Shown here piece by piece: positions 11,887 through 30,174 of a stretch of DNA of 64,000 nucleotides. The position numbers and the translations under genes are program-made. The number at the start of each line of letters is the position of its first letter. The stretch's first letter is position 1. Under the pieces are notes generated by a model. It was not told where the DNA came from, did no database searches, and saw only the letters and a program-made list of their open reading frames with translations. Source of the stretch: an uncultured Pseudomonadota bacterium (GTDB lineage Bacteria > Desulfobacterota > Binatia > Binatales > Binataceae); NCBI GenBank assembly GCA_963805995.1, contig CAWDWL010000005.1, forward strand, positions 479,509-543,508, given 5' to 3'.

Positions 11887-11959
11887 CAGTTATCCCAAGA
11901 ACGAACAGCAAAATTCGAGTTCGGCTCGCCGCATGCGGATTCTGGACGCGGGGCCCAAA

Positions 11960-12958: not shown

Positions 12959-12977
12959 GAGGGCGCTTCTCCCTTCG

Positions 12978-13625: not shown

Positions 13626-14033
13626 TTAGCCCGGCCGCTCTGACAATGCTAGTGCTCTCTGTCCGAAGCCGAGCCCCTTATTTTCATGGCGGAGTGCCGG
13701 CAATGCTCTCGCCGGATATCTGTCGACCTCCCGCTGCCTGGGAGCCAGCCTGCCGCCCATCCCTAACCCATCGGTCAATGGCACTTTTACGCGTCCGCTC
13801 CGGCAAGTCAAGAGCTTGGGAGCACAACCTCCACCGGAAGGTCCAGCGAGAGCCGATGGTGTTGGTGAACAGCTTACATAAAACGCTCGTTCGGATATTG
13901 CCGATCGCGGTAACGCGAGAAACTTTCTTCCGGCGCCGCAATCCAACGCGTATGCTGAATAGTGGAGTTTGTTGCTTCCTACCTCCGGACTCCGAAGTGG
14001 AACGAAAATCGCCGACCAGGGTTTGCCTGCAAA

Positions 14034-15576
14034 ATGTCCCATCGGGAAAACATCGCTGCGCACCTGGAACAGATCAAGGGTCAGATTATTGTCCGCTGGC
14101 GGGAAGAGGCCCGGCGCGAACCGATGCATGCCAAAGCGCTCGAAGAGTCTGGACAACCGCCGCCTCGAGGACCATCTGCCGGCGCTTACTGAGAAGGTTA
14201 TCCAACGCTTACGAGGGAGAACGGCCGCCGCGGACGTCGAGGAGCAGGGTCGCCTTCACGGGCAGCAGCGGCGGCACGACGGTTACACAGTGGTGGACGT
14301 GATGAAGGAGCTTAATCTGTATCGGCGCGTCCTGCTTGGCGCCGTCGACGAGGTTACCGCCCAGGACGCTCCACCGGCGGATATTGTACAGGCCCGTCGC
14401 GTGATACTGGAACAGGTCGATCGGAGCGTAAATGCGTCCGTGGAACAGTACACCACTCACGCTGAACAGGAGCGCAACCAGGCTCAGGAAGAGGCCCAGG
14501 ATTTGCACGACCAGCGCGACCGGTTCCTGATGACGCTGTCGCACGAACTACGCAATCAGATCTCGCCGATTCTTTTGAACGTGCAACTCTTGAACGATTT
14601 CAAGCCGCCCGATCCGCGGATTCAACAGGCGGTGGCAAGAATCGGGCGCCAGGCCCTGCATCAATCCATTCTTATCGATGACCTGCTCGCCCTGAGCCGC
14701 TTTCAGTACGGCAGTCTGCATCTTAAACCGGAACTGATCGACCTGCGGGAGCCGGTCCGGCACGCATTTGAGACCTTCGAACCGGATTTGAAATTGAAGC
14801 GGCTGAAGCTTCATGCCGAACTTCCCCAGCGGCCCGTGATGGCGCAGGTTGACCGGACCCGGATCGCGCAAATCGTGATCAACCTGCTGGGCAACGCGGT
14901 CAAGTTCACCCCTTCTGAAGGTACCATCACGGTTCGGCTCGCGCGGGAAAATGACAGCGCAGTTCTAAGCGTAAAGGACAGTGGCATCGGCATCGCAAAG
15001 GAAGCACTGCCCAAGGTCTTCAACATGTTTTTTCAAGGCAAGGCATTGTTGAAGCAGGTCAACAGCGGACTCGGCGTCGGGCTGGCCTTGGCCAAGGCTC
15101 TGGTCGAGTTGCACGGCGGCACTATCGAGGCCCGTAGCGAGGGCGAGAATGTGGGCGCTGAGTTCCTTATCCGGCTTCCAGTTCCCAAGGATCTGCCGCA
15201 AGTGGATTCCGATCTCTCAAACAAAAGCGTGCTGCTGGTCGATGATAACCCCGATCAACTCGCCGGGCTCGCCGAGTTGCTGAGGATGCGCGGGTATAAA
15301 GTCATAGAAGCTGGAGACGGTTTTGAGGCGCTGCGTCTGGCGTCGGAGTTCAAGCCCGCTAGCTGCGTGATCGATATCGGGCTGCCGGGCATCGACGGGT
15401 ACGAGGTTGCGCGCCGGCTGCGCGCTCTTCCCGAGACCCGCGCTTCCCGTTTGGTCGCGCTAACCGGGTACAACATACGCGACGAGCAGCAGCCCTTCAA
15501 AGATGCCGGTTTCGATCGCTATTTGCTCAAGCCCACCGAGGTTGACGAACTCGACCGGATTTTGTCAACCGAGTAG
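14034..15576 (+). CDS. hybrid sensor histidine kinase (HisKA + HATPase + C-terminal receiver), with an apparent +1 frameshift near 14150
   Basis: H-box LSHELRNQISPI, N/G boxes (LLGNAVKF, DSGIGI, GLGVGLA), and a receiver VLLVDDNPDQ...VIDIGLPGIDG. The coherent N-terminus MSHRENIAAHLEQIKGQII...MHAKALEE lies in the neighbouring frame (ORF 13962..14192). Confidence 0.7.
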
Positions 15577-15627: not shown

Positions 15628-16650
15628 TCAATCAGTGATCGCGGCCAACGCAATCGGAGTCGCGCCGGCGGCGTCTGACACCTTGGCCGCGTTGAGTAGC
15701 GCCAGCGCGATGGCGGCTTCGCGCAGGTTTTGCTGCGCGATCGGACCTTGGGGCCCCTGCGCTATCGCACTTTCGAACTCCTCCGCGAGCCCGGCGAACC
15801 ATCCGGGATGATAAGAGTTGTCCGGCTCCTCGACCACCGGCAGGACTTCGCTGATTCCCGATCGGCTCGACCACCGCACGCTACTCTCTTCGATTTCGAT
15901 CATTCCCTCCAAACCGTAAAGCATCGCTGACGTGCGTCGCGTTGGGGCGCGCCAGGACAAATGGATGTAGCCCAAGGCACCGCCGGGGAAGGTCAAGCTC
16001 AGATCCGCGACTTCCTCGACGACGCCGGGAGGAAAGACGCCCAGCCGCGCCGCTACCGACAATGGCGCGCGCCCGCCCATCAGCCACTGCATCAGATAGA
16101 ACGCGTGCCATCCGTGATCGATCAGGATTCCGCCGCCACCGATAACCGGGTCGATGCGCCACAGCGCACCTCCCGCCTGCCCGGTCCGCAGCCGCGACAG
16201 GGCGCAGTAACGCAACTCCCCCAGGCCTCCGGCACTGACCGCCTCAAAGGCGCGCCGGTACGTGGGTGAATACTTCCAGTTATGGACGCAGAACAGCACG
16301 CGGTCCTGAGCCGCGGCCAGCGAACGCAGGTCTGCAAAGTCCTTGGGATCGAGGCACAAGGGCTTCTCGACGATCACATGAGCGCCGGCTTCCAGGGCCG
16401 CGCGCGCCGCGCCCGCGTGATACGCCGGCGGACTGGCGACATCGACGAAGTCCGGCGCTTCGCCGTCGAGCAGCAGCTCAAGGTCCTCGTACACGCGGAT
16501 ATGTTTGATTGCGCGCAGTGCGGCCTGACGTCGCGCCGCGACCGGTTCATGAATCGCGACGATTTCGACGCCGGGCCGCTGGCGCCATCCGGGAAGGTGG
16601 CCCTGCTCGGCGACCTGTCCAAAGCCGGAAATTGCCCCGCGAAGTTTCAG
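15628..16650 (-). CDS. Gfo/Idh/MocA family oxidoreductase
   Basis: The C-terminal domain is the 15628..16494 ORF. The in-frame upstream extension encodes the Rossmann N-terminus KLRGAISGFGQVAEQGHLPGW with no ATG/GTG/TTG. The only start candidate is CTG at 16650, which follows a GAGGA Shine-Dalgarno. Confidence 0.6.
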   Translation of the reverse strand: MKLRGAISGFGQVAEQGHLPGWRQRPGVEIVAIHEPVAARRQAALRAIKHIRVYEDLELLLDGEAPDFVDVASPPAYHAGAARAALEAGAHVIVEKPLCLDPKDFADLRSLAAAQDRVLFCVHNWKYSPTYRRAFEAVSAGGLGELRYCALSRLRTGQAGGALWRIDPVIGGGGILIDHGWHAFYLMQWLMGGRAPLSVAARLGVFPPGVVEEVADLSLTFPGGALGYIHLSWRAPTRRTSAMLYGLEGMIEIEESSVRWSSRSGISEVLPVVEEPDNSYHPGWFAGLAEEFESAIAQGPQGPIAQQNLREAAIALALLNAAKVSDAAGATPIALAAITD

Positions 16651-17130: not shown

Positions 17131-18018
17131 CTAGATCAGATACTTGCGCGCCAGGTCTTCGAGCTCGCGCTCCCAGGTCTTGGGCCCCAGCGCCATGCCG
17201 TCGCGGTAAATCGCCTCGGTGCCGACGACGATCCGATGGCATCCCGCCTCTTCATACTCGGCATAGGTCGCTTTGACCTCGGGGCGCTCGTAGGGCCGGA
17301 ACATGGTGATGTCCATCTTGCTGAAATCGCGTCCGGCTTCCTGGCACATCTTCTTCAACGTCACCAGGTTCTCGGCCAGTTGCTTGGCCTTAATCCGCAG
17401 CGGCATCCATCCGTCACCGATCGTAACCACGTCCTTGAGCACCTTATCCGGCCCCTGCGCTCCCCCGTTGGCGCCAATCAGCACCGGCGGATGAGGTTTT
17501 TGTGCCGGCTTGGGGAAACTCTTGACCGCCGGGAACTTGATGTATTTGCCATCGAAACTGGACTCGGGTTTGGTCCACAGTTCCTTCATCGCGCGGATGC
17601 ACTCGCGCGTGACCGCCCAGCGTTTGCGGAACTCCACTCCCATGATTTCGGTTTCGTCGGCCAGCCAGCCTGCGCCGATACCGAACATGAATCTGCCGCC
17701 GGAGAAGTAGTCAACCGTGGCGACTACTTTGGCCAGAACCAGGGGGTTGTGCTCGGGAACCAGGCAGATTCCGGTGATCAACTTGATCTTGCTGGTCACG
17801 CCCGCAGCGATGCCAAGCAGGACGAATGGATCGGGCATGCGCGAGTACCAGCCCGGAATCTCGCCCCCACCCGCAGGGTAAGGAGTTTTGTGCGCGACCG
17901 GAATAAATGCGTGTTCGGGAACGATGAGGGCGTCGAAGCCCAGGGCCTCGGCCTTGCGGAACACATCCACAGGTGGTGCGGTCAGATCACTTACAAACGC
18001 CGATACACCGACTTTCAT
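17131..18018 (-). CDS. luciferase-like monooxygenase (LLM) class flavin/F420-dependent oxidoreductase
   Basis: LLM fold signature (MKVGVSAF...AEALGFDALIVPEH...). Confidence 0.7.
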   Translation of the reverse strand: MKVGVSAFVSDLTAPPVDVFRKAEALGFDALIVPEHAFIPVAHKTPYPAGGGEIPGWYSRMPDPFVLLGIAAGVTSKIKLITGICLVPEHNPLVLAKVVATVDYFSGGRFMFGIGAGWLADETEIMGVEFRKRWAVTRECIRAMKELWTKPESSFDGKYIKFPAVKSFPKPAQKPHPPVLIGANGGAQGPDKVLKDVVTIGDGWMPLRIKAKQLAENLVTLKKMCQEAGRDFSKMDITMFRPYERPEVKATYAEYEEAGCHRIVVGTEAIYRDGMALGPKTWERELEDLARKYLI

Positions 18019-18141: not shown

Positions 18142-18618
18142 TCAGCTGGTTTTGAAGAACTCTTCCGCATAGACGAAACGGCCCACACCCGCCGCACGAG
18201 CGCATTGCTCGTCCACATCCTGATCGCCCACCAGCGTTGATGCGGCCAGATCGACCCCGTGGACCGCCGCCAATTCCTGGACCATCCCGGGCGCCGGCTT
18301 GCGGCATCCGCATCCGTCTTCGGGGCCGTGCGGGCAGATTTCCCAGGCGGTCAGGATACCGCCGAGTTGGCGATCGAGTTCGGCAATCGCCGTCTCGACC
18401 TGTTCGCGGGTGAAGCGGCCGCGTTTGATGCCACGCTGGTTGGTAACGATGAAGATAAGATTGTCGCGCAGCGGACGGAGCTTTTCGGCGACTCCGGGGA
18501 GCAGTTCGATCTTGACCTTACCGCGCGCGTCGGCCGGGAGGTCGCGATTTTCATCGAGCTTCACCAAGGTGCCGCCCAAATCGCAAAACAGTCCAACATT
18601 TCCGGCATGATCCGCCAT
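18142..18618 (-). CDS. HAD-IIIA family phosphatase (GmhB / histidinol-phosphatase-like)
   Basis: DLGGTL motif I, IFIVTNQ motif II, and the Zn-binding CPHGPEDGCGCRKP signature of the GmhB/HisB-N subfamily. Confidence 0.65.
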   Translation of the reverse strand: MADHAGNVGLFCDLGGTLVKLDENRDLPADARGKVKIELLPGVAEKLRPLRDNLIFIVTNQRGIKRGRFTREQVETAIAELDRQLGGILTAWEICPHGPEDGCGCRKPAPGMVQELAAVHGVDLAASTLVGDQDVDEQCARAAGVGRFVYAEEFFKTS

Positions 18619-18626
18619 GATTCGAA

Positions 18627-19991
18627 CTACTCCTCACGCCAATTGCAATGGTCGCGCACGTAGGTGAAAACCTCGTCGAGTATCGCCGCTCCGGCCTCCG
18701 CCTGCGCTTCCGTGATGACCAGCGGGGGATTGATCCGAATGCGCGGGAAATAGCTCATGGTCAGCAAGCCGCGCTTGAGCGCTTCCTTGAAGACCACCTC
18801 CATGATCCGGCGGCTCAGTTCGCGCCGGGTGTGGCGATCGCGCACCAGATCGATTCCGATCATCAGGCCGCGGCCGCGCACGTCGCCGACGAACTCGAAC
18901 TTTTCCTTCAGCGCCAGCAGACGCGCGAGCAGGGTCGCGCCCACTGTGCGCGAATTTTCGACCAGATGCTCCTCCTGGATACTGCGCAGCGTCTGGCCCA
19001 CCGCCACCGCGGCCAATGGATTGCCGCCGTAGCTGGATGATGACGCGCTGGGTTTGGAGAATGGTTTGGCTTGCGCCACCTCTTCTCTCAGCAGCACCCC
19101 CGACACCGGGAAGCCTGAGCCCATCCCCTTGCCAACGGTCATGATGTCGGGCTGCACGCCGGTATGCTCGACGCCCCACATCTTTCCGGTGCGCCCGAAC
19201 CCGGTGATCATCTCGTCGGCAATCAGCACGGCGTCGTTTTCCCGGGCGATCTCCTTGACCGCGGGCAGGAACTCATCGGGCGGGATCACGTTGCCCGCAG
19301 TGCCCTGAAACGGCTCTATCAACACCGCGGCGATCGCGCCGCCCGAACTGTTCTTGATCTGCTTGCGGGCGAAGTCCACGCAAAACATGCCGCATTGCGG
19401 ATATTCCAATTTGAATGGACAGCGGTAGCAGTCGGCGTAGGGCACCAGATGCTGGCCGCCTGGGAGGGGGCCATAGCCTTGCTTGGACTCGTCACCGATA
19501 AGGCCGATCACCCCACCGGTCTTGCCGTGGAAGCCGCCCCAAAAGCCAACCACCTCATGCTTGCCGGTAAAGGAGCGCGCCGCGCGCAAAGCCGCCTCGA
19601 CCGCCTCGGCGCCGCCGCTGTAAAGGTGAAAACGTTTGAGCCCCGGCGGCGCCGCTTCGGCGATCGTCTTGAACGCGTCGGCCCGCTCGGGCGTAGCAAA
19701 GGTCCCGACCATCAGCCGTGCCGCCTGATCGGCCAAGGCCTTGGACAGCACCGGATGGCCATGGCCGAGGCTGGCTACCGCCACCCCGGCAAAGAAATCC
19801 AGGTAAACGTTACCGTCGACGTCAGTCAGGGTGGCGCCGTCACCATGATCGAAGGCGACTCCGGCCAGCGAGGAAATGCGCTGGCGTCCCGGAGCCAGAT
19901 AGCGCTCCTCCTGGTCGAACACGGCGCGCGACTGCGGTCCGGGAACCTGGGTCTTAATCGAAGGAAGTTTGCTCTTCTTTTCTTTCATCAA
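18627..19991 (-). CDS. class III pyridoxal-phosphate-dependent aminotransferase (acetylornithine/ornithine aminotransferase-like)
   Basis: Aminotransferase class III fold and length (454 aa), with a conserved Lys region. Confidence 0.8.
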   Translation of the reverse strand: MMKEKKSKLPSIKTQVPGPQSRAVFDQEERYLAPGRQRISSLAGVAFDHGDGATLTDVDGNVYLDFFAGVAVASLGHGHPVLSKALADQAARLMVGTFATPERADAFKTIAEAAPPGLKRFHLYSGGAEAVEAALRAARSFTGKHEVVGFWGGFHGKTGGVIGLIGDESKQGYGPLPGGQHLVPYADCYRCPFKLEYPQCGMFCVDFARKQIKNSSGGAIAAVLIEPFQGTAGNVIPPDEFLPAVKEIARENDAVLIADEMITGFGRTGKMWGVEHTGVQPDIMTVGKGMGSGFPVSGVLLREEVAQAKPFSKPSASSSSYGGNPLAAVAVGQTLRSIQEEHLVENSRTVGATLLARLLALKEKFEFVGDVRGRGLMIGIDLVRDRHTRRELSRRIMEVVFKEALKRGLLTMSYFPRIRINPPLVITEAQAEAGAAILDEVFTYVRDHCNWREE

Positions 19992-20008
19992 TGTAATCTG
20001 TCAGCGCC

Positions 20009-20833
20009 CTATCTCGTGGAGCGCATGGCCAGCAGGTCGAGCGTCCGGCGGGCGATGGCGGCGGCGGCCGGCGCCCTGACCAGCTCAAAGCTGGGCCAAT
20101 CGTTAAAGTCCACCAGTTTGAATTGTTCACGCTCGATTATTGCGTCACCGCCCCACACTTCCAATCCCAACGCGGCGGCAGCGGACTGCGCCGCGCGATG
20201 CAGTCGCGTACGCGTCGCCGCGTTGACGCCGTCTGCGTCGGCGACGCTGAAATAGTCCGTGTCCGTCACGCCATAAAACTTGACCACCCTGCCCTCCACC
20301 TCCTGCTGCAGATAGGCAAGGTTGATACCCCTGGCGGCGAAGTCCTCGAGGATCGGCACGAGTGCTTCGTGGTTGGCGGCGCGGCGCACGTCGCCGGCCG
20401 ACAGCGCGTGCAAGTCGCCACGCTTGACGTAGATTCCCCGACGCGGATCAAGCGCGCCCAGTGCGCCAAGATCAACCGCCGCGGAGGTCTCGACCAGGAT
20501 TCCTTCGGGAACCGGCACCGCCGCCTCCTTCAGGACCCGTCCCAAGCGGTCACGGTAACATGAGCGGATCGCCTGGGGCGAATTGATCACCAGCGCACCG
20601 GCCGCCTGCTCCTGAGCCAAGCGCCGCAGGGCCTCCTCGCTCTGGCACATCGCCATGATCAGGGCGCAATCTGGACCATCATAGGCGATCAACTCCGCCG
20701 GATTGACGGCTGCCGTGCTGATACCATGTTCGGACAGCCGCGCCAGCACCAGGTCCAGGATAGCGGCGTCGGCGCCGACCTTGCCGGGGGAGAATTCGCT
20801 TTCCCGATATACGCCCAGCGCGTGGACCATCAC
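20009..20833 (-). CDS. ATP-grasp family ligase (RimK-like), substrate unknown
   Basis: ATP-grasp sub-motifs: YVKRGDLHALSAGDV, EDFAARGINLAYLQQEVEGRVVKFYGV, and GLEVWGGDAIIEREQFKLVDFNDWP. Confidence 0.5.
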   Translation of the reverse strand: MMVHALGVYRESEFSPGKVGADAAILDLVLARLSEHGISTAAVNPAELIAYDGPDCALIMAMCQSEEALRRLAQEQAAGALVINSPQAIRSCYRDRLGRVLKEAAVPVPEGILVETSAAVDLGALGALDPRRGIYVKRGDLHALSAGDVRRAANHEALVPILEDFAARGINLAYLQQEVEGRVVKFYGVTDTDYFSVADADGVNAATRTRLHRAAQSAAAALGLEVWGGDAIIEREQFKLVDFNDWPSFELVRAPAAAAIARRTLDLLAMRSTR

Positions 20834-21591
20834 ACGTCACCTTTGCCGGGGCGCGCCGCGCGATGCTCCCGCTCCAGCATCCGGCGCGCCGCGTCGAGGT
20901 CCGCGGCGACGTCGATATCAACCACGCCGCTCAACTCGATCGCGTGGAGACGAACGCCCCATTCAACCAGTCCGCCAAGGAATTGCCGCAGCGCCGACAG
21001 CTTCAACTCACGCGCCCGGGTGCGAAAGGCAAAAATCGAGGTGGGAAGAAAATAGACCCCTGCGGTCACCAGTGAAGACTGCTCCACCCCGACCTTGCGT
21101 ATCACGCCGCCAGGTTCGACCTCGATAAACAGTGGGCGTTCGTCACCGCGCCATCGCACAACAGCCAGGGCGCCATCGGCCGCACTATCCGACTCTGACC
21201 CGGTCCGCGCAACCGCCTGCTGCGCGAAACGCTTCATTTCACCGCGGGCCAGAACCGCGTCAACCGTGGCGGCAAGAAACCCACGACCGGTCAGATGATC
21301 GGCAAGTTGAAACAGGGTCTCCATCGAATTGGGAGTGTCACGCACTACCAGCTTGAGTTGGCTGGGGAGGAGGATTGCGTCGCGCTCGATCAGCGATGCG
21401 GTTTCGGAGTTGACCACCGCGATAACGCGCTCAACTCCGGCTTCCAGCAGGGCGCGGGTCTGGCGCAGCAATAACGGTTCGTCGTCGAGCTTGACCAGCG
21501 GCTTGGGCAGATCGGGCCCTTGAGCCCGCAACCGCTCACCGTGCCCCGCCGCCAGAATCGCTCCTTCAATCCGATCCAAGACAAATCTCAA
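20830..21591 (-). CDS. sugar-/alcohol-phosphate nucleotidyltransferase (MobA/GlmU-like NTP_transferase)
   Basis: AILAAGHGERL ... KPLVKLDDEPLL signature. It overlaps the ATP-grasp start by 4 bp. Confidence 0.65.
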   Translation of the reverse strand: MRFVLDRIEGAILAAGHGERLRAQGPDLPKPLVKLDDEPLLLRQTRALLEAGVERVIAVVNSETASLIERDAILLPSQLKLVVRDTPNSMETLFQLADHLTGRGFLAATVDAVLARGEMKRFAQQAVARTGSESDSAADGALAVVRWRGDERPLFIEVEPGGVIRKVGVEQSSLVTAGVYFLPTSIFAFRTRARELKLSALRQFLGGLVEWGVRLHAIELSGVVDIDVAADLDAARRMLEREHRAARPGKGDV

Positions 21592-22303
21592 CTAATTGAT
21601 GAAGGTCGTGCACCACAAAGTCGGCGCCACGCTCCAAGGCCGCAGTGTACTCTACGGACTCAGGCGCTAACCACACGGTACGCAACCCGAGCTGGTGCGC
21701 CGGAATGCAATCCTTGCCCAGGGAGTCGCCGATCATCGCGGTCTCATACGGACGGGCATCCATCCGCGCAAGTGCCGCCAGGTAAATCGCCGGGTCCGGC
21801 TTGAAGACGCCGACCCGTGAAGAGTCGATTGCCGCCTGGACGAAAGGCGCCAGGCCCGCTTCTTCCAGGACCGCCTGGAGATTGCCATAAAAATTCGACA
21901 CCACGCCGATCTTGAAGCTCGATGCCAGCTTAGACAGCGTCGCCCGGCTGTGCTTGAAACCGGCCGCGCTCCCGGCGCAAAAACCGCCCGCTATCAGTCC
22001 CGCGGCGTCGCGAAGAGTCGGCGGCACCCGATCCGGCAGATGTTCGAGAAGATAGTCGATTTGCCAGTTCACGAGTTCGTCAAGGAGCTGGCGCAGCCCA
22101 TAGGCGTAAATGCGCTCGCCGGCCTGATAACCGCGGCGGGTGGCGTAGGAGAAGGCCGGGTCGAGCTCCTCGCGGGTCAGGTCGAGTCCTGCGGCCTGGC
22201 GATAAAGAGTCAGAAACCGGTCAAGCCAATGCGCCGCCGGCAAGTCGAGAGTGCCTCCGAAATCGAACAGCAGCGTGCCGATCTTTTTCCACGAAATTCG
22301 CAC
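21566..22303 (-). CDS. HAD superfamily hydrolase (subfamily IA-like)
   Basis: FDFGGTL motif I and HAD core motifs. It is the first gene of the 5-gene minus-strand operon. Confidence 0.6.
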   Translation of the reverse strand: MRISWKKIGTLLFDFGGTLDLPAAHWLDRFLTLYRQAAGLDLTREELDPAFSYATRRGYQAGERIYAYGLRQLLDELVNWQIDYLLEHLPDRVPPTLRDAAGLIAGGFCAGSAAGFKHSRATLSKLASSFKIGVVSNFYGNLQAVLEEAGLAPFVQAAIDSSRVGVFKPDPAIYLAALARMDARPYETAMIGDSLGKDCIPAHQLGLRTVWLAPESVEYTAALERGADFVVHDLHQLVEICLGSD

Positions 22304-22542
22304 GTAAACCAGGACCTCAACAAGGCGTCGCCAATGCGATCAGAATTTACGGATGAGATGCGGTCGAAGCCAGTTCCACTTTAAAACTATTTTTGCGGCG
22401 GCACGTGCTTGGCTCACCGCAGTTCCGACGGCGCTTGGTCGCGCCGGAAAATACCATTGTTTTGAAGGGTAAATCAGGGGTATCTTGCCTTGCCTGACCG
22501 ATTGGTCTAGTACATTGCCCTGAGCCGACCTGAAAAAAGAAA

Positions 22543-23778
22543 GTGATTTTGGATTCCAGTTCAGCCAGCCAGGAAAAGGCCCCCGTAGTGTTGATCGACG
22601 CTCCCAGCCGTGGCGCAGACCTGATTTTTGGGCGCCCGCTGCTGGAACGAATGATCAGGGTGTGCGAGCGCGCCGGGGTCGCCAACTTCTTCCTGAAATG
22701 CCCAACCCAGGAGCAGACGCGGTATAGTGCTGCTTTGGGCCGGTTCGCCGGCGACCCGCGGGTGCATTTTGTCGGCTCGTTCGATGAAGTCAAAAACCAT
22801 CTGAACGGGTCGTCCGACTCCGGCCAGGGAGTCGCGCTCAAAGGGAACATCGTCTTTTCTCTTTCGCAGTTGCGCGACCTGCTCACGCAACAGGCGAACA
22901 GCGCGGCCGAGGTAATCAAACTTCCCAGTGCCAACGGGGATCCGGCAGCGTCGGTGTCAGTTGGACCGCTAAGCGATTTGGTGGGCGCCGATGGCCGGCA
23001 ACCGGGAGCGAACGTTTTCAGCCGGCTCGACGGGCTCCCATTCGCGCTCAATGGGCATCCCGAAGACTGTCAAACCGCGGAACTCGCGATTGCCAGCACC
23101 TTGCGCCATGATACCGCCCGTACCGACGGCCTGATGGCGCGGATTTTCGACCGCAAGCTCTCGTGGCGGCTCAGCTACCGGTTAGCCAATACCTCAATTA
23201 TGCCCAACCAGGTGACGCTGGCTAACACCGCCCTGGGCTTCCTGATCGCCTGGATGTTCGCGCAACAGCCCAGCTATTGGATTCCCTTACTGGCGGCGGC
23301 GCTGTTCGTAATCTCAATCACGATCGACGGCGTTGACGGGGAACTGGCCCGGCTCAAGTTGGCGGAGACCAAGGCGGGGGCGCGGCTGGACGCGATCACC
23401 GACAACATCGTCCATATCGCGATTTTTCTCGGAATCGGCCTCGGCAGTTATCGCGTCGCGCACAATCCCGCCTACGTCTATGTCTTAATCGCGTTTTTGC
23501 TCGGATTCGGATGTTGCGCAATTTCGGTCAATCGGGCGATGAGCGTTTCGGCGCAGGGGGCGGAGACTTTCATCCGCAAAGTCGATCGCATGACCGGACG
23601 CGATTTCGCGTACCTGGTGTTGTTTTTGGCACTGATTAATCGGCTGCACTATTTCATAATCGGCGCGGCAATTGGCACTTATCTCTTCGCGGGTGGGTTG
23701 TGGTGGTTAACCAACAAGTGGACCCGCGAGAACGCCGCGCTTCTAACCGGTGGGGATCGGCTTGCGGAGGGCCTATGA
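22543..23778 (+). CDS. fusion protein with an N-terminal degenerate nucleotidyltransferase-like domain and a C-terminal CDP-alcohol phosphatidyltransferase
   Basis: C-terminal DGVDGELARLK...GARLDAITD CDP-OH-P-transferase motif on a multi-transmembrane segment. N-terminal VVLIDAPSRGADLIFGRPLLERMI is MobA-like but lacks GxGxR. Confidence 0.7.
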   Translation: MILDSSSASQEKAPVVLIDAPSRGADLIFGRPLLERMIRVCERAGVANFFLKCPTQEQTRYSAALGRFAGDPRVHFVGSFDEVKNHLNGSSDSGQGVALKGNIVFSLSQLRDLLTQQANSAAEVIKLPSANGDPAASVSVGPLSDLVGADGRQPGANVFSRLDGLPFALNGHPEDCQTAELAIASTLRHDTARTDGLMARIFDRKLSWRLSYRLANTSIMPNQVTLANTALGFLIAWMFAQQPSYWIPLLAAALFVISITIDGVDGELARLKLAETKAGARLDAITDNIVHIAIFLGIGLGSYRVAHNPAYVYVLIAFLLGFGCCAISVNRAMSVSAQGAETFIRKVDRMTGRDFAYLVLFLALINRLHYFIIGAAIGTYLFAGGLWWLTNKWTRENAALLTGGDRLAEGL

Positions 23779-25100
23779 AAAAGCCACGTATCCTTCTCAT
23801 TCAACCGACAACGGTTCATCTCGACGGCACGCCACATAAGACCCGCTGGCGGCTGATCATGGGGCTGATGATCCCGCTGGTCGCGGGTCTGACCCCCGAC
23901 GACTTCGACGTCACCCTGTGCGATGAGCGGCTGGAGGACGTCGATTTCGACGCAGGCTGGGACCTGGTCGGAATGACGACCACGATCGGCGCCTCGTTGC
24001 GCGCCTATCAACTGGGCGATGAGTTCCGCAAACGCGGCGTCCCGGTGGTCTTCGGCGGGTTTCATGCCACGCTCCAAACCGAGGAGGCGCTCAAACACTG
24101 CGACGCGGTGATCCAGGGCGAAGCCGACCTGGTATGGGAACCGCTGCTGCGCGACTGGCAGGACGGCAAGCTCAAGCAGGTGTACAAAGCCGACAAGCTG
24201 CACGACCTCAAGAACCTGCCGCGTCCGCGCCACGAACTGCTCAAACTCAACCGCTACCTGTTCAAGGCGGTTCCGATCCAGGCCAGCCGCGGATGCCCCT
24301 ATCGATGCTCATTCTGCGAGATTCCGGTGTTCTATGAGGGCGCTTACCGGACGCGGCCGATCGAGGACATCGTCGAGGAAATCAAGCAGGTCGTCAAAAT
24401 TACCGGCATCCGCCGGTTCCAGTTTATCGACGACCAGATCACCGGCAAGCATAAGTTCGCGCGCGAACTGTTCCGCGCCCTGGAGCCGCTGAATATCCGC
24501 TTCGCATGCCTGTGGACAATCAATTCCAACCACGACGACGAACTGCTCGATTTGGCGGCCAAGGCCGGCATTTTCCATGTCAACATCGGGGTGGAATCGA
24601 TCAGCCAGGACAGCCTGCTGTCGATGAACAAGATCCAGAACCACGCCAATCAGTATAAGAAGCTGCTCGAGAAGATGCGCAAGTACGGCATCTACTACTC
24701 GCTCAACTTCCTGTTTGGCCTGGAAAACGACCATCCCCAGATTTTCGACGACACCCTCAAGTTCCTCCACGAGGTCAAGGCCCCCGAAGCGTTCTTCAAC
24801 ACAGTGACCCCGCGCAAAGGCACGCCGATGCGCACGCAGTTGGAAGACGAGGGCCGCGTGATCATCCCCGACGCGGACATGTACACCAATAACTTCCGCT
24901 GCATGTTCGTGCCCAAGAATCTCTCACCGATGGAAGTCGAAGAGGGCGTGTGGCGCTGCACCACCGAGTTCTACTCGCTCAAGTCGATGTTCAAGCGCCT
25001 GCTGATGCCGCCCGGGCCATTCACCTGGCAGGGCCTGACCGAGAACATGCTCTTCTACTTTGGGGCCAAGCGGCGCATCGACCCGGTCGATTATTATTAA
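23775..25100 (+). CDS. B12-binding-domain radical SAM enzyme (class B; HpnJ-like architecture)
   Basis: N-terminal cobalamin-binding domain (RILLIQP..., VVFGGFHAT) and an ASRGCPYRCSFCE CxxxCxxC motif. ATG at 23775 overlaps the upstream stop in an ATGA arrangement. Confidence 0.85.
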   Translation: MKKPRILLIQPTTVHLDGTPHKTRWRLIMGLMIPLVAGLTPDDFDVTLCDERLEDVDFDAGWDLVGMTTTIGASLRAYQLGDEFRKRGVPVVFGGFHATLQTEEALKHCDAVIQGEADLVWEPLLRDWQDGKLKQVYKADKLHDLKNLPRPRHELLKLNRYLFKAVPIQASRGCPYRCSFCEIPVFYEGAYRTRPIEDIVEEIKQVVKITGIRRFQFIDDQITGKHKFARELFRALEPLNIRFACLWTINSNHDDELLDLAAKAGIFHVNIGVESISQDSLLSMNKIQNHANQYKKLLEKMRKYGIYYSLNFLFGLENDHPQIFDDTLKFLHEVKAPEAFFNTVTPRKGTPMRTQLEDEGRVIIPDADMYTNNFRCMFVPKNLSPMEVEEGVWRCTTEFYSLKSMFKRLLMPPGPFTWQGLTENMLFYFGAKRRIDPVDYY

Positions 25101-25133: not shown

Positions 25134-25168
25134 CCTCTCCCACATTGGTTCGTGGGAGAGGTTTTTTT
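25134..25168 (+). terminator. rho-independent terminator: stem CCTCTCCCAC / GTGGGAGAGG, 8-nt loop, T7 run
   Basis: Perfect 10-bp GC-rich inverted repeat followed by TTTTTTT, 34 bp after the radical SAM stop. Confidence 0.65.
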
Positions 25169-25281: not shown

Positions 25282-25362
25282 GCGTGGCGACGCCGGTTGA
25301 TGTGGCGTCTCCAGGATTATGCGCGCGGTTGCCGTTTTGCCGGTGGCGCGACCGGAGTGACG

Positions 25363-26034
25363 ATGGGCGCCCACGATTTGCGCAAATGGTCTTTACTCAT
25401 TGTGGCTTTGGTCCTTTCCGCTTGCGGAATTGCATGGCCGCCGCTGAAGGAAACTCCCAAGGTCGTACCCACCCCGATTGATGGCGAGTTTTCGGTGGTG
25501 ACGCAGGCCGAACATCCAGTCGGGGACCTGATTCCGGTTTACGTTTCAATCGCCAACGGCACCGATGAAGGCCGGACGGTCCATCCGAGCCAGGTCTTTG
25601 CGCTCAACGAGTACGGTCAAAGAGTCGCTCCGGTTCCACCAACCGAAGCGGCGCGCCAGGCGGGTAACGCAGGCGCGCTGAAGGCCGCCTTGGCGAGTTC
25701 CGCCGCCGGTGGAGCGGCTGAAGGAGCATTCGGCGCGGCAGTTGGGGCGCTCGCCGGTCTCGCCTTGGGCGGAGTGGGTCCGGGGGCTGCCGTGGGAGGT
25801 GCGGTGGGCGCCGCTCAAGGCGCATTGTGGAGCGCTCCGATGGGCCAGGCACAAGCGCAAGGCCAGGCCAATGCGCAAATCCAGGGGCTGGCACTGGGCG
25901 ACAGCGAAGTGCGCAAGGACTTCACCATCAGCGGCTATGTCTTCTTCCCCAAGGGCGCCTACAAAAACGTGGAGATGCTGGTGGTCAACAACGAGACCGG
26001 CTCGACCGAGACCGTAACCCTGCCCTGGCGCTGA
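25363..26034 (+). CDS. lipoprotein with a glycine-zipper segment
   Basis: Signal peptide plus lipobox (LLIVALVLSAC|G) and a Gly/Ala-rich GxxxG repeat (GAFGAAVGALAGLALGGVGPGAAVGGAVGAAQGA). Confidence 0.5.
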   Translation: MGAHDLRKWSLLIVALVLSACGIAWPPLKETPKVVPTPIDGEFSVVTQAEHPVGDLIPVYVSIANGTDEGRTVHPSQVFALNEYGQRVAPVPPTEAARQAGNAGALKAALASSAAGGAAEGAFGAAVGALAGLALGGVGPGAAVGGAVGAAQGALWSAPMGQAQAQGQANAQIQGLALGDSEVRKDFTISGYVFFPKGAYKNVEMLVVNNETGSTETVTLPWR

Positions 26035-26104: not shown

Positions 26105-26946
26105 TCAGACCTTTCCGATCAAATCGCGCTGCGACGCTTGGATGAACTCCAGCACCCCGGCCTCGTCGCGGGCGCGTGTGAACAGCACGATGCGATTGAT
26201 GCCCAGGCCGGCAAACTGCTTCGCCACTTCCAAATCCACCTTGCCCTTGGGCGTCACACTAATTTCGATTTGGTCAAAGGACCGGCCAAATCGCTCGCAG
26301 GCCTTTTTGATTCCATCGATATAGCCGGCGGTCCGATCGCGATCGAGCCCGAAGCCAAACCAGCCGTCGCCCAGGCGCGCCGTGCGGCTGAAGGCATACA
26401 CCGAGTTGCCGCCGAAGATGATCGGCGGACAAGGTTTCTGCACCGGACGCGGCTCCGCGCGCACGCCCGCAAAGGATACATAGCGGCCCTGGTACTCGGA
26501 CTTCTCCATCGTCCAGATCGCCCTCATCGCACCGACATATTCCTCGGCGCGTTTGCCCTTGTGATCGAACGGCACGCCGAGCGCGTTGTACTCCACTTCC
26601 AGCGAGCCGATGCCGAATCCGCAAATCAGGCGCCCGCCCGAGACCACATCGACTGAGGCCAGCTCCTTGGCCAACACCAGCGGATTGCGCTGCGGCAGAA
26701 TTATGATGCCGGTGGCAAGCTTGATCGTGCGCGTATGGCCCGCCACGAAGGCCAGGGCTACGGCGGAATCGACAAACGGCACCTCCGGCGGCATCGGCGA
26801 GGGTGGCGTTTGAGGGTCAGCCAGCACGATATGCTCGCCGGTCCAAAGGCTGTCGAAGCCCGCATCCTCGGCGGCGCGCGCGACCCGGGCCGCAGTCGCC
26901 GGATGGTCGCAGGGCCGCATGTTGATTCCGAATAATCCGAACTTCA
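26105..26946 (-). CDS. luciferase-like monooxygenase (LLM) class flavin/F420-dependent oxidoreductase
   Basis: MKFGLFGINM...AEDAGFDSLWTGEH LLM signature. The start is set at the internal ATG at 26946; the ORF track extends it to 27070. Confidence 0.7.
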
Positions 26947-27166
26947 TGGCTCTGCCACTAACACGAAATCGCGCCGGCTTAAACTCGTGCCGGTCTTTCC
27001 CCACGACCAAGGATGACCGTCTGGAAAGGCTGCGCCACATCCGGAAAATCCGATCCCGTGGGACAGACATTTCAGCCGGTCATGCCATTTTATGCGCTTT
27101 GCCTTGGGGACTCTGTCGACAACTGCGCGGCTTTGGGTTTGATCACGCTGCCGGGCCGTACCCATA

Positions 27167-27835
27167 ATGGCGCTGAAGTCCGAGGAGCCGGGAGACGCAT
27201 CAGTGAAGAGGCGAGCCGACCTGCGCTACGAGCGCAAACTGTGGCAGAGCGGAACCCCAGCGGTGGCCGGAGTGGATGAGGCGGGCGTGGGTCCGATGGC
27301 CGGTCCGGTGGTCGCAGCGGCGGTGATTTTCTCACCCGAAACCTTCATCAAAGGAGTCCACGACTCCAAGCAGGTTCCCGCCCCCAAGCGTGAGGAACTC
27401 TACGAGGCGATCACCGCACGCGCGCTCGCGTTCGCAATCGGGGTGGCCGAAGTCGACGAAATCGACCGCCTGAACATCTACCATGCGACGCTTGCCGCCA
27501 GCCTGAGAGCGGTTGAGGGGCTGGGCCTGAAACCTGGGCATGTGCTGGTGGACGGACGCCGGTTGCGGGCGTTGACCATACCGCAGACCCATATCGTGGG
27601 CGGCGACCGTAAAAGCTTCTGCATCGCCGCCGCCTCCATCATCGCCAAGGTGACGCGGGATCGGCTCATGTGCGCGTACGACGAGCGCTATCCAGGCTAC
27701 GGCTTTGCGCGTCACAAGGGCTACTGCACGGCGGAGCATTTCGAGGCGATCGGGCGCCTGGGGCCATCGCCGATCCATCGCACCTCGTTCGCGCCAGTCA
27801 GCGCCGCGGCGCAGCTCAACTTGAGGTTCATCTGA
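27167..27835 (+). CDS. rnhB: ribonuclease HII
   Basis: AGVDEAGVGPMAGPVVAAAV catalytic motif (DEAGRG type) and the full RNase HII fold. Confidence 0.85.
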   Translation: MALKSEEPGDASVKRRADLRYERKLWQSGTPAVAGVDEAGVGPMAGPVVAAAVIFSPETFIKGVHDSKQVPAPKREELYEAITARALAFAIGVAEVDEIDRLNIYHATLAASLRAVEGLGLKPGHVLVDGRRLRALTIPQTHIVGGDRKSFCIAAASIIAKVTRDRLMCAYDERYPGYGFARHKGYCTAEHFEAIGRLGPSPIHRTSFAPVSAAAQLNLRFI

Positions 27836-28048
27836 ACCCGCACGCTGGCCGTAGCGGCTTGTTTGCACAATCGCGACTGGTTTTTTTGGACGCCGCAGGA
27901 TTTAACCGGCGCGCTCTACAATCGGGGGCCGGGGTCGCGATACAATGGATAGCGTTGGCGGCGGGATGCTTCCTGCACAAAAATGAGTGGTTCCTGGAAA
28001 ATCCCGCCAGCCCGCTGGTTTGAGTGCGACTGACGAAAGGAGCAACGA

Positions 28049-29458: not shown

Positions 29459-29485
29459 GCGCGGACGAAGCGATGAGTTGGCCAG

Positions 29486-30172
29486 ATGGACGCTAGGACA
29501 ACGCTGGGGACGGCCTGGCTCGGTACGGTTGAGTATGAGCCGGCACTGCGCCTTCAGGACGCGATGGTCGAGGCTCGCCAATCAGGAGCAATCTGCGACA
29601 CATTGTTGCTGCTGGAGCATCCGCACGTCTATACGCTGGGACGCGGCGCCGCGGAGCGCTTCGTGGTGGCGCCGCCAGCGGGCGTCCCGATTTACCGAGT
29701 TTCACGCGGCGGGCAGGTTACCTATCACGGCCCCGGGCAATTGATCGCCTATCCGATCCTGAAGCTGGACGGCCCCGCCCGCGACATCCACGCCTATTTG
29801 CGGGCGCTGGAAGACGTAATCATCCGGACCCTGAGCGCTTGCGCAATCGGCGCGCAGCGCCGCATCGGACTGACCGGTGCCTGGGTGGGGCAGCGCAAGA
29901 TCGCGTCGATTGGGGTCGGCATCCGGCGCTGGACCACCCTGCATGGGCTGGCGCTCAACGTAAACCCCGACCTCAGTTTCTTCGATCACATTGTGCCGTG
30001 CGGCATCGAGGGCTGCGCGATGACCTCGATCGCGGGGGAAGGCCGCACAGGTGACAACCGCGGACGCGGCGCGATTGTTGACCAGCCAATTCGCGGCGGT
30101 ATTCGGTTATCAATCCCGCAAGACGGTAAACTCAACCGAGCTTTGGAGTATACTCAATTCGTCCGCGCCTGA
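29486..30172 (+). CDS. lipB: octanoyl-[ACP]:protein N-octanoyltransferase
   Basis: LipB signature RGGQVTYHGPGQLIAYPIL with catalytic Lys and Cys regions. Confidence 0.85.
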   Translation: MDARTTLGTAWLGTVEYEPALRLQDAMVEARQSGAICDTLLLLEHPHVYTLGRGAAERFVVAPPAGVPIYRVSRGGQVTYHGPGQLIAYPILKLDGPARDIHAYLRALEDVIIRTLSACAIGAQRRIGLTGAWVGQRKIASIGVGIRRWTTLHGLALNVNPDLSFFDHIVPCGIEGCAMTSIAGEGRTGDNRGRGAIVDQPIRGGIRLSIPQDGKLNRALEYTQFVRA

Positions 30173-30174
30173 GA

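Follow-up and report, generated by a model that had tools for sequence, protein, structure and literature searches.

The seven open reading frames at positions 18142–25100 of the window (the whole 64 kb stretch of DNA that was analysed, from a Candidatus Binataceae MAG) form a real, strongly conserved gene unit of the Binataceae, which are uncultured soil bacteria. Judged from sequence, there is an even chance that this module makes a CDP-activated, inositol-derived (amino)cyclitol phosphate, which would be attached by a phosphodiester to a membrane-lipid alcohol in a Kennedy-type pathway. What is established for the module is which gene families and folds it comprises, that it is conserved as a unit, and that it is linked to MIPS, GFO, lipid transporter and hopanoid genes; no gene of the module reaches a curated equivalog cutoff (NCBIfam). 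By orthology, the core of the module (HAD-IA, NTP-transferase and ATP-grasp) is the predicted alternative inositol-lipid cluster of Heaver et al. (2022), and the statement in the initial annotation that the genes fit no known pathway is thus only partly true.

The genes are arranged in two divergent arms, five on the minus and two on the plus strand, and all seven frames of the initial annotation are present. The arms are separated by 239 bp (22304–22542), read directly and presumed to be the promoter region, in which no Rfam family was found and no consensus sigma-70 site was seen. In the minus arm the NTP-transferase and ATP-grasp genes overlap by 4 nt and the HAD-IA and NTP-transferase genes by 14–26 nt, while the remaining gaps are 17 and 8 nt. 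In the plus arm the TGA stop of the first gene and the ATG of the second overlap as ATGA (23775–23778), as annotated, indicating translational coupling; the arm ends in an intrinsic-terminator-like hairpin (25134–25161, plus strand) with a 10-bp stem containing 7 G-C pairs, followed by T7.

The first plus-strand gene (22543–23778) encodes an AF2299-type CDP-alcohol phosphotransferase, an N-domain joined to six transmembrane helices [PF01066 (CDP-OH_P_transf), 51 bits], with the full catalytic motif D262xxD265G266xxA269R270x8G279xxxD283xxxD287. Its sequence matches PDB entries 4o6m (E = 7.6e-18) and 4mnd (E = 6.7e-11), and its AlphaFold2 model (pLDDT 83) is matched by Foldseek to AF2299 (E = 1e-10, TMt 0.70) and to IPCT/DIPPS (TMt 0.59), so sequence and fold agree with the IPCT/DIPPS type proposed earlier. 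The N-domain matches cytidylyltransferases but is degenerate, lacking the GxGxR...K signature. The second gene (23775–25100) encodes a B12-domain-type (class B-like) radical SAM enzyme [PF04055 (Radical_SAM), 77 bits] with the cluster motif CPYRCSFC; its B12-binding match is sub-threshold (26 bits against a GA of 32). The enzyme scores 107 bits with the BchE model, 96 with PhpK and 85 with HpnJ, all far below the cutoffs, and its best PDB match is AprD4. It is the most constrained protein of the module (87–97% identity across Binataceae, dN 0.06–0.08); the next closest relatives are at most 43% identical.

The minus arm opens with a HAD-IA protein [21566–22303; PF00702 (Pfam Hydrolase), 61 bits], orthologous to the Bacteroides cluster's ‘BV HAD’ family. 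Its motif I, FDFGGTLD, lacks the Asp+2, and the form FD[FY]GGT[LI]D is kept in all lineages that carry orthologues. The next gene (20830–21591) encodes a stand-alone alcohol- or sugar-phosphate nucleotidylyltransferase (NTP_transf_3; PF12804, 44 bits) with the canonical LAAGHGERL...PKPL signature, which matches the IPCT half of the IPCT/DIPPS model (E = 1.5e-10) and has GMPPB, HddC, MurU and LicC as PDB neighbours; we propose it as a candidate CDP-(amino)cyclitol synthase. In most cluster types the ATP-grasp gene comes directly after it. The ATP-grasp enzyme (20009–20833), the marker of the module, belongs to an unnamed family and is a putative cyclitol or aminocyclitol kinase, the alternative being a ligase. 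Directly after it, here and in cluster types B–E without exception, comes a class III (omega-type) PLP aminotransferase [18627–19991; PF00202 (Aminotran_3), 320 bits], below every NCBIfam equivalog cutoff and closest, among solved structures, to GABA/ornithine-type transaminases and racemases. The last gene (18142–18618), particular to the Binataceae version, encodes a small HAD-IIIA protein of 158 aa (TIGR01662, 62 bits, cutoff 44.6; TIGR01656, 86.5 bits, cutoff 84.15) whose motif I, CDLGGTL, also lacks the Asp+2 general acid; DL[GA]GTL is conserved across all relatives. The initial annotation had called this protein GmhB-like, a label that a GmhB score of 84 bits, far below the cutoff of 178, does not support.

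The boundary at 18142 was drawn too narrowly, because a GFO/IDH/MocA-family dehydrogenase gene further along the minus strand (15628–16649) belongs with the module. The protein is weakly IolG-like (NCBIfam IolG, 53 bits, below cutoff). Its Rossmann motif GAISGFG sits 5′ of the first canonical start codon and a CTG with GAGGA 10 nt upstream is available; to judge from this, translation probably starts at that CTG (16649). Of 62 Binataceae-type loci, 21 have the gene close to the module. Elsewhere the aminotransferase gene is directly beside a GFO/IDH/MocA gene (L051, L052, L056, L059, L089, L098, L108, L114, L122 and other loci); orthologues of the window's own dehydrogenase, at 30–40% identity, adjoin the aminotransferase in L051, L052, L056 and L059 and MIPS in L053. 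The dehydrogenase is therefore the probable partner of the aminotransferase, and the pairing is what one would expect if a cyclitol or sugar ketone, rather than a hopanoid aldehyde, were aminated, contrary to the HpnO-like function first assigned. The aminotransferase-bearing variants frequently also have an HpnL-like flippase gene, Mla or HpnN-like transporter genes and true HpnJ, HpnK or HpnH genes. Between dehydrogenase and module lies a minus-strand gene for an F420-dependent LLM-class oxidoreductase (17131–18018; TIGR03619, 241 bits, cutoff 167). A second LLM gene (26105–27070) also exceeds this cutoff, confirming that two LLM genes bracket the module. Of 47 Binataceae loci, 28 have an LLM homologue next after the HAD-IIIA gene, and the 17131–18018 gene is possibly an accessory of the module, a weak link because LLM paralogues are abundant.

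The intact module, seven genes in the same order, recurs in at least 40 Binataceae loci, with differing outer flanks in some. Such gene-for-gene recurrence in more than 40 species-level genomes, with proteins only 45–75% identical, is far beyond chance and bears out the conservation that the initial annotation had asked about. The HAD-IA, NTP-transferase and ATP-grasp core extends to Desulfarculales, Syntrophobacteraceae, Bdellovibrionales, Elusimicrobiota and many Bacteroidales. MIPS adjoins these three orthologues and a CDP-alcohol transferase in 28 of 44 Bacteroidales-type and six of nine type-B loci, and is also found beside the core in L051 (where it is a bona fide inositol-3-phosphate synthase) and L053. 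In Bacteroidales, Bdellovibrionales and other contigs the three core orthologues share one operon with MIPS, in keeping with the activation, transfer and dephosphorylation logic of an inositol-phosphate headgroup suggested at the outset. The suggested search for MIPS near the module found none within the 64 kb window, and just one Binataceae-type locus (L049, about 3.7 kb from the module) has MIPS nearby, so that inositol as the Binataceae substrate is inferred from the relatives.

A complete hopanoid cluster (2413–13081; HpnA, HpnE, HpnD, HpnC, Dxr, Shc, a Zn-dehydrogenase, FPP synthase and HpnH) shares the strand of the five-gene arm, and every Hpn and Shc model is above its curated cutoff. 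Its last gene, hpnH (11960–13081; 377 bits, cutoff 225), is 5.06 kb from the module, matching the 5 kb originally given. Same-strand hpnH, FPPS and shc follow the module in 16 of the 62 Binataceae-type loci, and the order module, LLM, GFO, HpnH, FPPS recurs in 14–16 Binataceae loci. At least six non-Binataceae contigs have true HpnJ, HpnK or HpnH, or HpnL-like or HpnN-like genes, embedded with the module: HpnJ is co-operonic with it in L054 and L089, HpnK comes next after an HpnL-like gene in L122 and L114, and L092 has the order IspH, HpnH, squalene synthase, HAD, NTP-transferase, ATP-grasp. The suspected hopanoid link is thus supported by comparison of gene neighbourhoods, which upholds that part of the tailoring proposal; its likening of the radical SAM enzyme to HpnJ and of the aminotransferase to HpnO is not supported.

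In the pathway that we propose, inositol phosphate from a MIPS encoded elsewhere in Binataceae would be dephosphorylated by a HAD, a ring hydroxyl would be oxidized to the ketone by the GFO/IDH/MocA dehydrogenase and the ketone would be converted by the class III aminotransferase to an inosamine, following the logic of streptidine biosynthesis. The ATP-grasp enzyme, acting as an ITPK-like kinase, would phosphorylate the cyclitol, the stand-alone NTP-transferase would make the CDP-cyclitol, and the AF2299-type enzyme would pass the cyclitol phosphate to its acceptor. The acceptor would be a membrane lipid, either a glycerolipid or a bacteriohopanepolyol through its terminal hydroxyl, and is possibly a hopanoid. 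The coupled radical SAM enzyme may then modify the headgroup through C-methylation or an HpnJ/Cds/AprD4-like rearrangement, and the second HAD may remove a leftover phosphate or have another role. The phosphatase steps are doubtful, since neither HAD has the Asp+2 that serves canonical HAD phosphatases as general acid, and the scores of the aminotransferase and dehydrogenase, below every equivalog cutoff, count against the cyclitol reading. A lipid bearing such a headgroup was not found in the literature searched.

Several further observations count against this lipid pathway: no flippase or lipid transporter is encoded within the Binataceae module, its transferase is of a different subtype from that of Bacteroidales, and the closest solved relatives, AF2299 and DIPP synthase, are described as not processing lipids (PMC4634129). 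The product might instead be a soluble phosphodiester compatible solute, like di-myo-inositol phosphate or glycerophospho-inositol, formed from the CDP-(amino)cyclitol and a second polyol phosphate with a HAD removing the terminal phosphate. The six-helix architecture shared with AF2299 and IPCT/DIPPS, whose donors and acceptors are described as soluble, and the presence of two HADs fit this, but the HADs both lack the Asp+2. Moreover, HpnL-like flippase-like proteins adjoin the transferase in eight of nine type-B and at least seven type-C/D loci; a transferase of the same AF2299 type has one next to it in L052, L114 and L122 and one near it in L089, the L052 cluster also has an HpnN-like RND transporter, and MlaE, MlaF and MlaD lie inside the operon of L103 (L119 has the same ORF layout only). 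Given also the tie of the Bacteroidales relatives to inositol lipids and a repeated hopanoid linkage that a solute hardly accounts for, we consider a solute unlikely. We hold it unlikely, too, that the ATP-grasp enzyme is a true ligase, acylating the cyclitol or headgroup amine with an amino acid or other carboxylate (with a charge effect akin to that of lysyl-phosphatidylglycerol) while the CDP-activated cyclitol phosphate comes straight from MIPS. In favour of a ligase, RimK gives family members their lowest E value of any Pfam match (0.002), the ATP-grasp and aminotransferase genes are side by side in every aminotransferase-bearing type, and the HpnL-like proteins nearby are members of the lysyl-PG synthase transmembrane-domain family. 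However, 44 Bacteroidales-type clusters without the aminotransferase, which make plain inositol phosphoceramide and supply neither an amine nor a carboxylate on which a ligase could act, conserve the enzyme just as well. The partner that invariably accompanies it is not the aminotransferase but the nucleotidyltransferase, adjacent or near in nearly every cluster type, which favours a kinase. Ligases usually have ExN at the Mg-site, whereas this family has DxN, as aligned in ITPK1 and ITPK4.

Adjacency of hpnH and shc, the linkage to HpnJ, HpnK and HpnH in other lineages and the place of HpnJ among the better radical SAM matches could also point to direct hopanoid tailoring, with the aminotransferase acting on a bacteriohopane aldehyde, the radical SAM enzyme on a hopanoid-bound sugar, and no cyclitol phosphate. 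This is improbable: 85 bits against the HpnJ cutoff of 578, 22–26% identity to true HpnJ and the presence of a separate true HpnJ alongside the module in L054, L089, L092 and L122 rule out the radical SAM enzyme as HpnJ, a GFO dehydrogenase accompanies the aminotransferase, the core stands beside MIPS in hopanoid-free Bacteroidales, and known HpnO/HpnJ chemistry has no role for a CDP-alcohol transferase or a nucleotidyltransferase. There is a very slight chance that the module decorates a surface glycan (LPS core, capsule or teichoic-acid-like polymer) with a phospho-alcohol or makes an NDP-heptose-type precursor. Inositol is associated with the B. thetaiotaomicron capsule (Heaver et al., PMC9246714), and weak NCBIfam matches link the HAD-IIIA protein to GmhB and the NTP-transferase to HddC, MurU and AglF; the GmhB and HddC scores all fall far below cutoff (HddC 21 bits against 300), GmhA isomerase, sugar kinase and glycosyltransferase were not identified among the module genes of any cluster type examined, and the neighbours that recur are MIPS and hopanoid genes and those for lipid flippase-like proteins and lipid transporters.

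The closest known system to the proposed cyclitol-lipid pathway is the putative alternative inositol-lipid cluster of Bacteroides (Phocaeicola) vulgatus and Prevotella, in which an NTP-transferase (BVU_RS13095), a CDP-alcohol phosphatidyltransferase (BVU_RS13105) and a HAD hydrolase (BVU_RS13115), of predicted function, lie beside MIPS; inositol phosphoceramide is a product of both B. vulgatus and Prevotella veroralis, which have the Bacteroidales cluster (Heaver et al., 2022; PMC9246714). The orthologues are 27–33% (NTP-transferase), 27–35% (HAD-IA, with the same FD[FY]GGT motif) and 30–35% (ATP-grasp, with the same invariant residues) identical, and the proposed CDP-inositol, Kennedy-type logic is shared. 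The Bacteroidales order is NTP-transferase, ATP-grasp, CDP-alcohol transferase and HAD beside MIPS, the ATP-grasp gene being absent from the published description (PMC9246714), and the transferase is a 305–320-aa subtype without the N-domain. The Binataceae module adds the aminotransferase, GFO dehydrogenase, HAD-IIIA protein and B12-type radical SAM enzyme, lacks an adjacent MIPS and lies beside hopanoid genes.

With AF2299 (PDB 4o6m/4o6n), whose physiological role was not established in PMC4634129, and IPCT/DIPPS (PDB 4mnd) of Archaeoglobus fulgidus the transferase shares a cytidylyltransferase-like cytosolic domain and a six-helix CDP-alcohol phosphotransferase. The IPCT/DIPPS N-domain is an active cytidylyltransferase, whereas that of Binataceae is degenerate and a separate NTP-transferase is encoded; against the NCBIfam IPCT/DIPPS model the transferase scores 78 bits (cutoff 580). 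The archaeal enzymes make solutes, while the Binataceae gene context points to lipids. The scyllo-inosamine part of the streptidine (streptomycin) route uses an inositol-phosphate phosphatase, a GFO/IDH/MocA-type inositol dehydrogenase, an aminotransferase and an inosamine kinase. The extended module offers these enzyme classes in the same order, as a HAD, a GFO/IDH/MocA dehydrogenase, an aminotransferase and an enzyme that depends on ATP, and in relatives they share an operon with MIPS. Its aminotransferase, however, is class III and not of the DegT/StsC type, its putative kinase has the ATP-grasp fold, and its proposed product would be CDP-activated and handed to a CDP-alcohol transferase instead of being amidinated. 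HpnJ (bacteriohopanetetrol cyclitol ether) and Cds (calditol synthase) are radical SAM enzymes that remodel lipid headgroups (PMC13459092). The module enzyme resembles them in its B12-binding-type N-domain and in its position beside headgroup-attaching genes and near hopanoid genes, and differs from HpnJ in that BchE and PhpK are its best model matches. The marker protein, finally, shares its ATP-grasp fold with the inositol phosphate kinases ITPK1 and ITPK4.

The seven open reading frames of the initial annotation are all present, and Pfam and NCBIfam models support most of the assignments. The minus-strand arm encodes a HAD-IA protein (21566-22303, fold-family model PF00702), an NTP-transferase (20830-21591) in which the LAAGxGxRL...PKPL signature is intact, an ATP-grasp enzyme (20009-20833), a class III aminotransferase (18627-19991; PF00202, 320 bits) and a small HAD-IIIA protein (18142-18618, fold-family model TIGR01662). 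The plus-strand arm encodes a CDP-alcohol phosphotransferase with ~190 additional N-terminal residues (22543-23778) and a radical SAM enzyme (23775-25100); the two genes share the predicted ATGA overlap (23775-23778), and a strong terminator-like hairpin at 25134-25161 ends this two-gene arm. No consensus sigma-70 promoter was found in the divergent intergenic region, and neither there nor elsewhere in 15-27.5 kb is there a credible Rfam riboswitch match. No protein of the seven attains a curated NCBIfam equivalog cutoff. An exact-sequence lookup of the fusion protein gave no match because the called start differs; that of the radical SAM protein was successful. Past the terminator, a 245-residue reading frame (25297-26034, plus strand) has no Pfam or NCBIfam match and is conserved in position only in the relative locus L004 (68% identity). 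Genes for RNase HII, dihydrolipoyl dehydrogenase, a lipoate-protein ligase of B type and lipoyl synthase follow (27167-31050, plus strand), none of which recurs beside the module at other loci.

The hopanoid cluster is complete (HpnA, E, D, C, Dxr, Shc, FPPS and HpnH, all on the same strand). HpnH is the last gene and lies 5.06 kb from the module (377 bits against a cutoff of 225), in agreement with the ~5 kb estimated from sequence, and both bracketing LLM oxidoreductases score above the TIGR03619 cutoff. The gene that separates shc from that for FPP synthase encodes a Zn-dependent dehydrogenase (9872-10927, minus strand) and is conserved there in 12 Binataceae loci; the top-scoring models, threonine dehydrogenase and the scyllo-inosose 3-dehydrogenase IolM, are both matched far below cutoff. 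A hybrid histidine kinase/response regulator gene (13969-15576, plus strand) separates hpnH from the gene for a GFO/IDH/MocA-family dehydrogenase (GFO); no other Binataceae locus has a homologue at the same position (one weak 26% match).

The CDP-alcohol transferase carries the motif D(x)2DG(x)2AR(x)8G(x)3D(x)3D in a polytopic membrane domain (PF01066, 51 vs 22 bits), and D262, D265, G266, A269, R270, G279, D283 and D287 are each invariant (alignment A3). The N-terminal domain, described at the outset as degenerate and nucleotidyltransferase-like, does match cytidylyltransferases by fold and lacks the GxGxR...K nucleotide-binding signature. The protein has the AF2299-like architecture of a cytidylyltransferase-like cytosolic domain fused to a six-helix CDP-alcohol phosphotransferase; it matches AF2299 over residues 191-368 by phmmer (E = 7.6e-18) and over the whole chain by Foldseek (E = 1e-10). 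When modelled (pLDDT 83), the fusion protein can be superposed on both AF2299 (TMt = 0.70) and IPCT/DIPPS. The match to the bifunctional IPCT/DIPPS model NF041135 (77.6 bits vs 580) is confined to the transferase half. A second AF2299-type paralogue (38-39% identity) occurs just past the radical SAM gene in some Binataceae loci (L015, ~2047; L019, ~820), and two AF2299-type copies are also found in L098, L108 and L129.

The radical SAM core motif CxxxCxxC is present as CPYRCSFC (PF04055, 77 vs 29.5 bits), and the N-terminal B12-binding domain is a sub-threshold match (PF02310, 26.2 bits vs a gathering threshold of 32.1). The nearest solved relative is AprD4, which carries an N-terminal B12-binding domain; the AprD4 structure and the BchE, PhpK and HpnJ models are all distant relatives. 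The HpnJ-like character attributed to the enzyme was not borne out: it scores 84.6 bits against the TIGR03471 equivalog cutoff of 577.6, and true HpnJ proteins found at four retrieved loci (L054, L089, L092 and L122; 708-745 bits) are 22-26% identical to it. Across Binataceae the radical SAM enzyme is 87-97% identical, the translationally coupled transferase 45-68%. Its dN (0.06-0.08, vs 0.18-0.55 for the neighbours) is 3-7 times under that of any neighbour and also under that of HpnH; since synonymous sites are heavily diverged (pS ~0.5), this points to purifying selection and not to recent transfer. In a library clustered at 50% the Binataceae copies all fall into a single cluster, beyond which no relative exceeds 43% identity.

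Neither HAD protein of the module contains the phosphatase motif I, DxDx[TV], in which Asp+2 is the general acid/base. The HAD-IA sequence reads FDFGGTLD and the HAD-IIIA sequence CDLGGTL, and the Asp+2 position is Gly or Ala in every relative examined: FD[FY]GGT[LI]D for HAD-IA in every lineage including Bacteroidales (FDYGGTID in the 'BV HAD' orthologues there) and DL[GA]GTL for HAD-IIIA. Because Asp+2 is missing from both, simple phosphatase roles for these predicted enzymes are doubtful. The suggested GmhB likeness of the HAD-IIIA protein fails on scores (83.6, 58.5 and 45.1 bits vs curated cutoffs of 178, 149.6 and 250), and an LPS heptose (GmhB/HddC) pathway is rejected on these scores and on the lack of GmhA or a kinase. 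The module lies outside the HpnJ, GmhB and IPCT/DIPPS families as curated. Weak matches to PhpK, Sden_1168, Sden_1164 and PbfA had prompted a phosphonate reading, which was discarded with all scores far under cutoff; no PEP mutase was identified among the Binataceae loci examined.

The top homologues carry the name Candidatus Binataceae, and the same region was found in three metagenome assemblies; Binataceae are represented in this analysis by metagenome-assembled genomes only. The neighbourhood is conserved: the order, with the radical SAM and transferase genes divergent from HAD-IA, NTP-transferase, ATP-grasp, aminotransferase and HAD-IIIA, is kept gene for gene across Binataceae loci at protein identities down to 45-75%. 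A scan with the ATP-grasp alignment, one genome per species, finds at least 593 relatives; family members outside Binataceae belong to Desulfarculales, Syntrophobacteraceae, Bdellovibrionales, Elusimicrobiota and many Bacteroidales. The core of the module is both more widespread and more ancient than the Binataceae. Three further cluster types were defined by a metagenome scan and tblastn maps. Type B comprises the NTP-transferase, Mla genes, ATP-grasp, aminotransferase, a short CDP-alcohol transferase, GFO, an HpnL-like protein, HAD-IA and myo-inositol-phosphate synthase (MIPS), with MIPS in six of nine loci and GFO and the HpnL-like gene in eight of nine each. Types C/D comprise HAD-IA, NTP-transferase, ATP-grasp, aminotransferase, GFO, an AF2299-type transferase and an HpnL-like protein, and type E is the Binataceae arrangement. 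A low-GC (34-36%) cluster type, also with MIPS, was seen at L103 and L119. In L103 the NTP-transferase gene is separated from the ATP-grasp gene by MlaE, MlaF and MlaD (7443-9950; identified by Pfam); L119 has a matching layout of reading frames (6599-9144) and two tandem ATP-grasp paralogues. The Desulfarculales locus L052 (2157-4531 and 13424-16195) has in addition a small SPASM-type radical SAM protein, a sulfotransferase and an HpnN-like RND transporter (508 bits, under cutoff); homologues of the small radical SAM protein occur in L089 (70% identity) and, more weakly, in L135 and L138 (30%).

The aminotransferase gene immediately adjoins a GFO gene in four loci (L051, L052, L056 and L059), and GFO stands beside MIPS in L053. 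A dehydrogenase and an aminotransferase in one operon with MIPS form the classical route from a cyclitol hydroxyl to an amine, with precedent in streptidine biosynthesis. The GFO gene of the window (15628-16649, minus strand) is the orthologue of these genes at 30-40% identity and, being so related to the aminotransferase-adjacent GFO, should be regarded as a member of the module. Its Rossmann motif GAISGFG lies upstream of the first ATG, GTG or TTG, and translation probably begins at the CTG of position 16649, which GAGGA precedes by 10 nt; with this start, automated calls omit 16495-16649 and shorten the protein to 288 residues. For HpnO, the class III enzyme that aminates the side-chain aldehyde of bacteriohopane and to which the aminotransferase had been likened, no curated model exists (PMC12324291); the adjacency of GFO in relatives argues for a substrate other than that of HpnO.

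The membrane proteins encoded beside the transferases always have HpnL as best match (TIGR03476; 110-189 bits, just below the cutoff of 195.65). HpnL is an orphan family over-represented in the neighbourhood of shc (PMC12324291). Outside Binataceae, genuine hopanoid-tailoring genes are found within clusters of this kind. HpnJ (739-745 bits) is immediately upstream of HAD-IA, NTP-transferase and ATP-grasp in L054 and L089. The order in L092 is IspH, HpnH (490 bits), squalene synthase, HAD-IA, NTP-transferase and ATP-grasp, with HpnJ close by. In both L114 and L122 the gene after the HpnL-like one encodes HpnK (325-334 bits), and L122 has HpnJ (708 bits) as well. The siting beside shc/hpnH holds for 16 of 62 Binataceae loci, in which HAD-IIIA, LLM, GFO, HpnH, FPPS and then Shc lie on the same strand, and there are other loci with unrelated flanks; an earlier view from L004-L006 that hopanoid adjacency is not conserved was overturned by this larger sample. 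The aminotransferase/AF2299-type versions recur with hopanoid genes around them in several lineages that are not related to one another. Since none of the Bacteroidales-type loci has a hopanoid gene, the core chemistry is, on this distribution, independent of hopanoids.

The ATP-grasp protein has the three-domain fold of its superfamily with the ATP and Mg ligands conserved. Pfam models, run on 32 members of the family, do not distinguish a kinase from a ligase, with weak matches to PF05770 (ITPK) in five (best E = 0.038), and a sequence search of the PDB gave no match even at E = 10. We read the enzyme as a putative kinase. It is paired with a nucleotidyltransferase in nearly every cluster type, and kinase and pyrophosphorylase are a classical couple; a substrate for a ligase is absent from the Bacteroidales clusters. 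The best PDB profile matches are ITPK4 (E = 0.084) and ITPK1 (E = 0.6), in alignments spanning the Mg-binding region, and ITPK1 and PPIP5K stand high in the fold ranking. All the profile matches, which include LysX, are sub-significant.

We propose that the module may act as a Kennedy-type CDP-alcohol headgroup pathway. MIPS would provide inositol phosphate, from which a HAD protein would release the free cyclitol; GFO and the aminotransferase would turn this into an inosamine, to be phosphorylated by the ATP-grasp enzyme. The NTP-transferase would form the CDP derivative, the AF2299-type enzyme would transfer its cyclitol phosphate part onto the alcohol group of a lipid, and the radical SAM enzyme would afterwards tailor the headgroup. 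The product of MIPS is D-inositol-3-phosphate, and Kennedy-type transfer retains that phosphate. A D-1-linked headgroup would need dephosphorylation and then rephosphorylation at another position, which could account for a phosphatase and a kinase beside MIPS even without amination. A soluble product resembling di-myo-inositol phosphate remains a rival to the lipid: the Binataceae module is without a flippase, and AF2299 and DIPP synthase are said not to process lipids (PMC4634129). In a more specific form of the lipid pathway, which we consider rather unlikely, bacteriohopanetetrol would be the acceptor and its terminal hydroxyl would take up the CDP-activated aminocyclitol phosphate, giving a phosphodiester-linked 'phospho-inosamine hopanoid' with HpnL-family proteins as flippases and the highly conserved B12-type radical SAM enzyme remodelling the headgroup. 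Such a compound would be a never-reported hopanoid counterpart of phosphatidylinositol and inositol phosphoceramide, and would give AF2299-type transferases and HpnL a first physiological role.

If the headgroup model is correct, the abundant soil Binataceae and several other lineages would make unrecognised aminocyclitol phospholipids or phospho-hopanoids, which would bear on membrane biology and on the reading of hopanoid and intact-polar-lipid biomarkers. The analysis offers candidate testable functions for three orphan families (the ATP-grasp family, AF2299-type transferases and HpnL) and draws attention to two HAD families whose catalytic motifs are non-canonical. Literature searches on aminopentanetetrol biosynthesis and on combinations of these enzyme classes turned up no account of this pathway, nor of ATP-grasp, aminotransferase, GFO and radical SAM together or of their hopanoid linkage. 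Inositol-type lipids are considered rare in bacteria, and a bacterial Kennedy-type CDP-inositol route has so far only been predicted.

The Bacteroidales clusters run NTP-transferase, ATP-grasp, CDP-alcohol transferase, HAD-IA, beside MIPS (L063 checked by Pfam); of 44 loci of this type, 28 have MIPS. This corresponds to the 'putative alternative inositol lipid cluster' of B. vulgatus and Prevotella, makers of inositol phosphoceramide, for which the NTP-transferase, transferase and HAD are named, the ATP-grasp gene is unmentioned and the functions are stated to be unconfirmed (Heaver et al., 2022). In the predicted cluster an invariant component, the ATP-grasp protein, had been overlooked; the cluster is part of the larger cluster family, many members of which add the oxidise-and-transaminate pair, lipid flippase-like or transporter genes and hopanoid-tailoring genes. 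Unlike it, the Binataceae module has no MIPS in its direct vicinity: there is none in the 64-kb window, and within the stored flank only one of 62 Binataceae-type loci has MIPS (L049, ~3.7 kb from the module). A MIPS protein search gave no match named Binataceae, which is uninformative on how general MIPS is there. The Binataceae CDP-alcohol transferase is also of a different subtype within the same Pfam family. NTP-transferase, CDP-alcohol transferase and HAD are grouped in both, the NTP-transferase, HAD-IA and ATP-grasp proteins are orthologous, and the module is related by descent to the predicted Bacteroides cluster.
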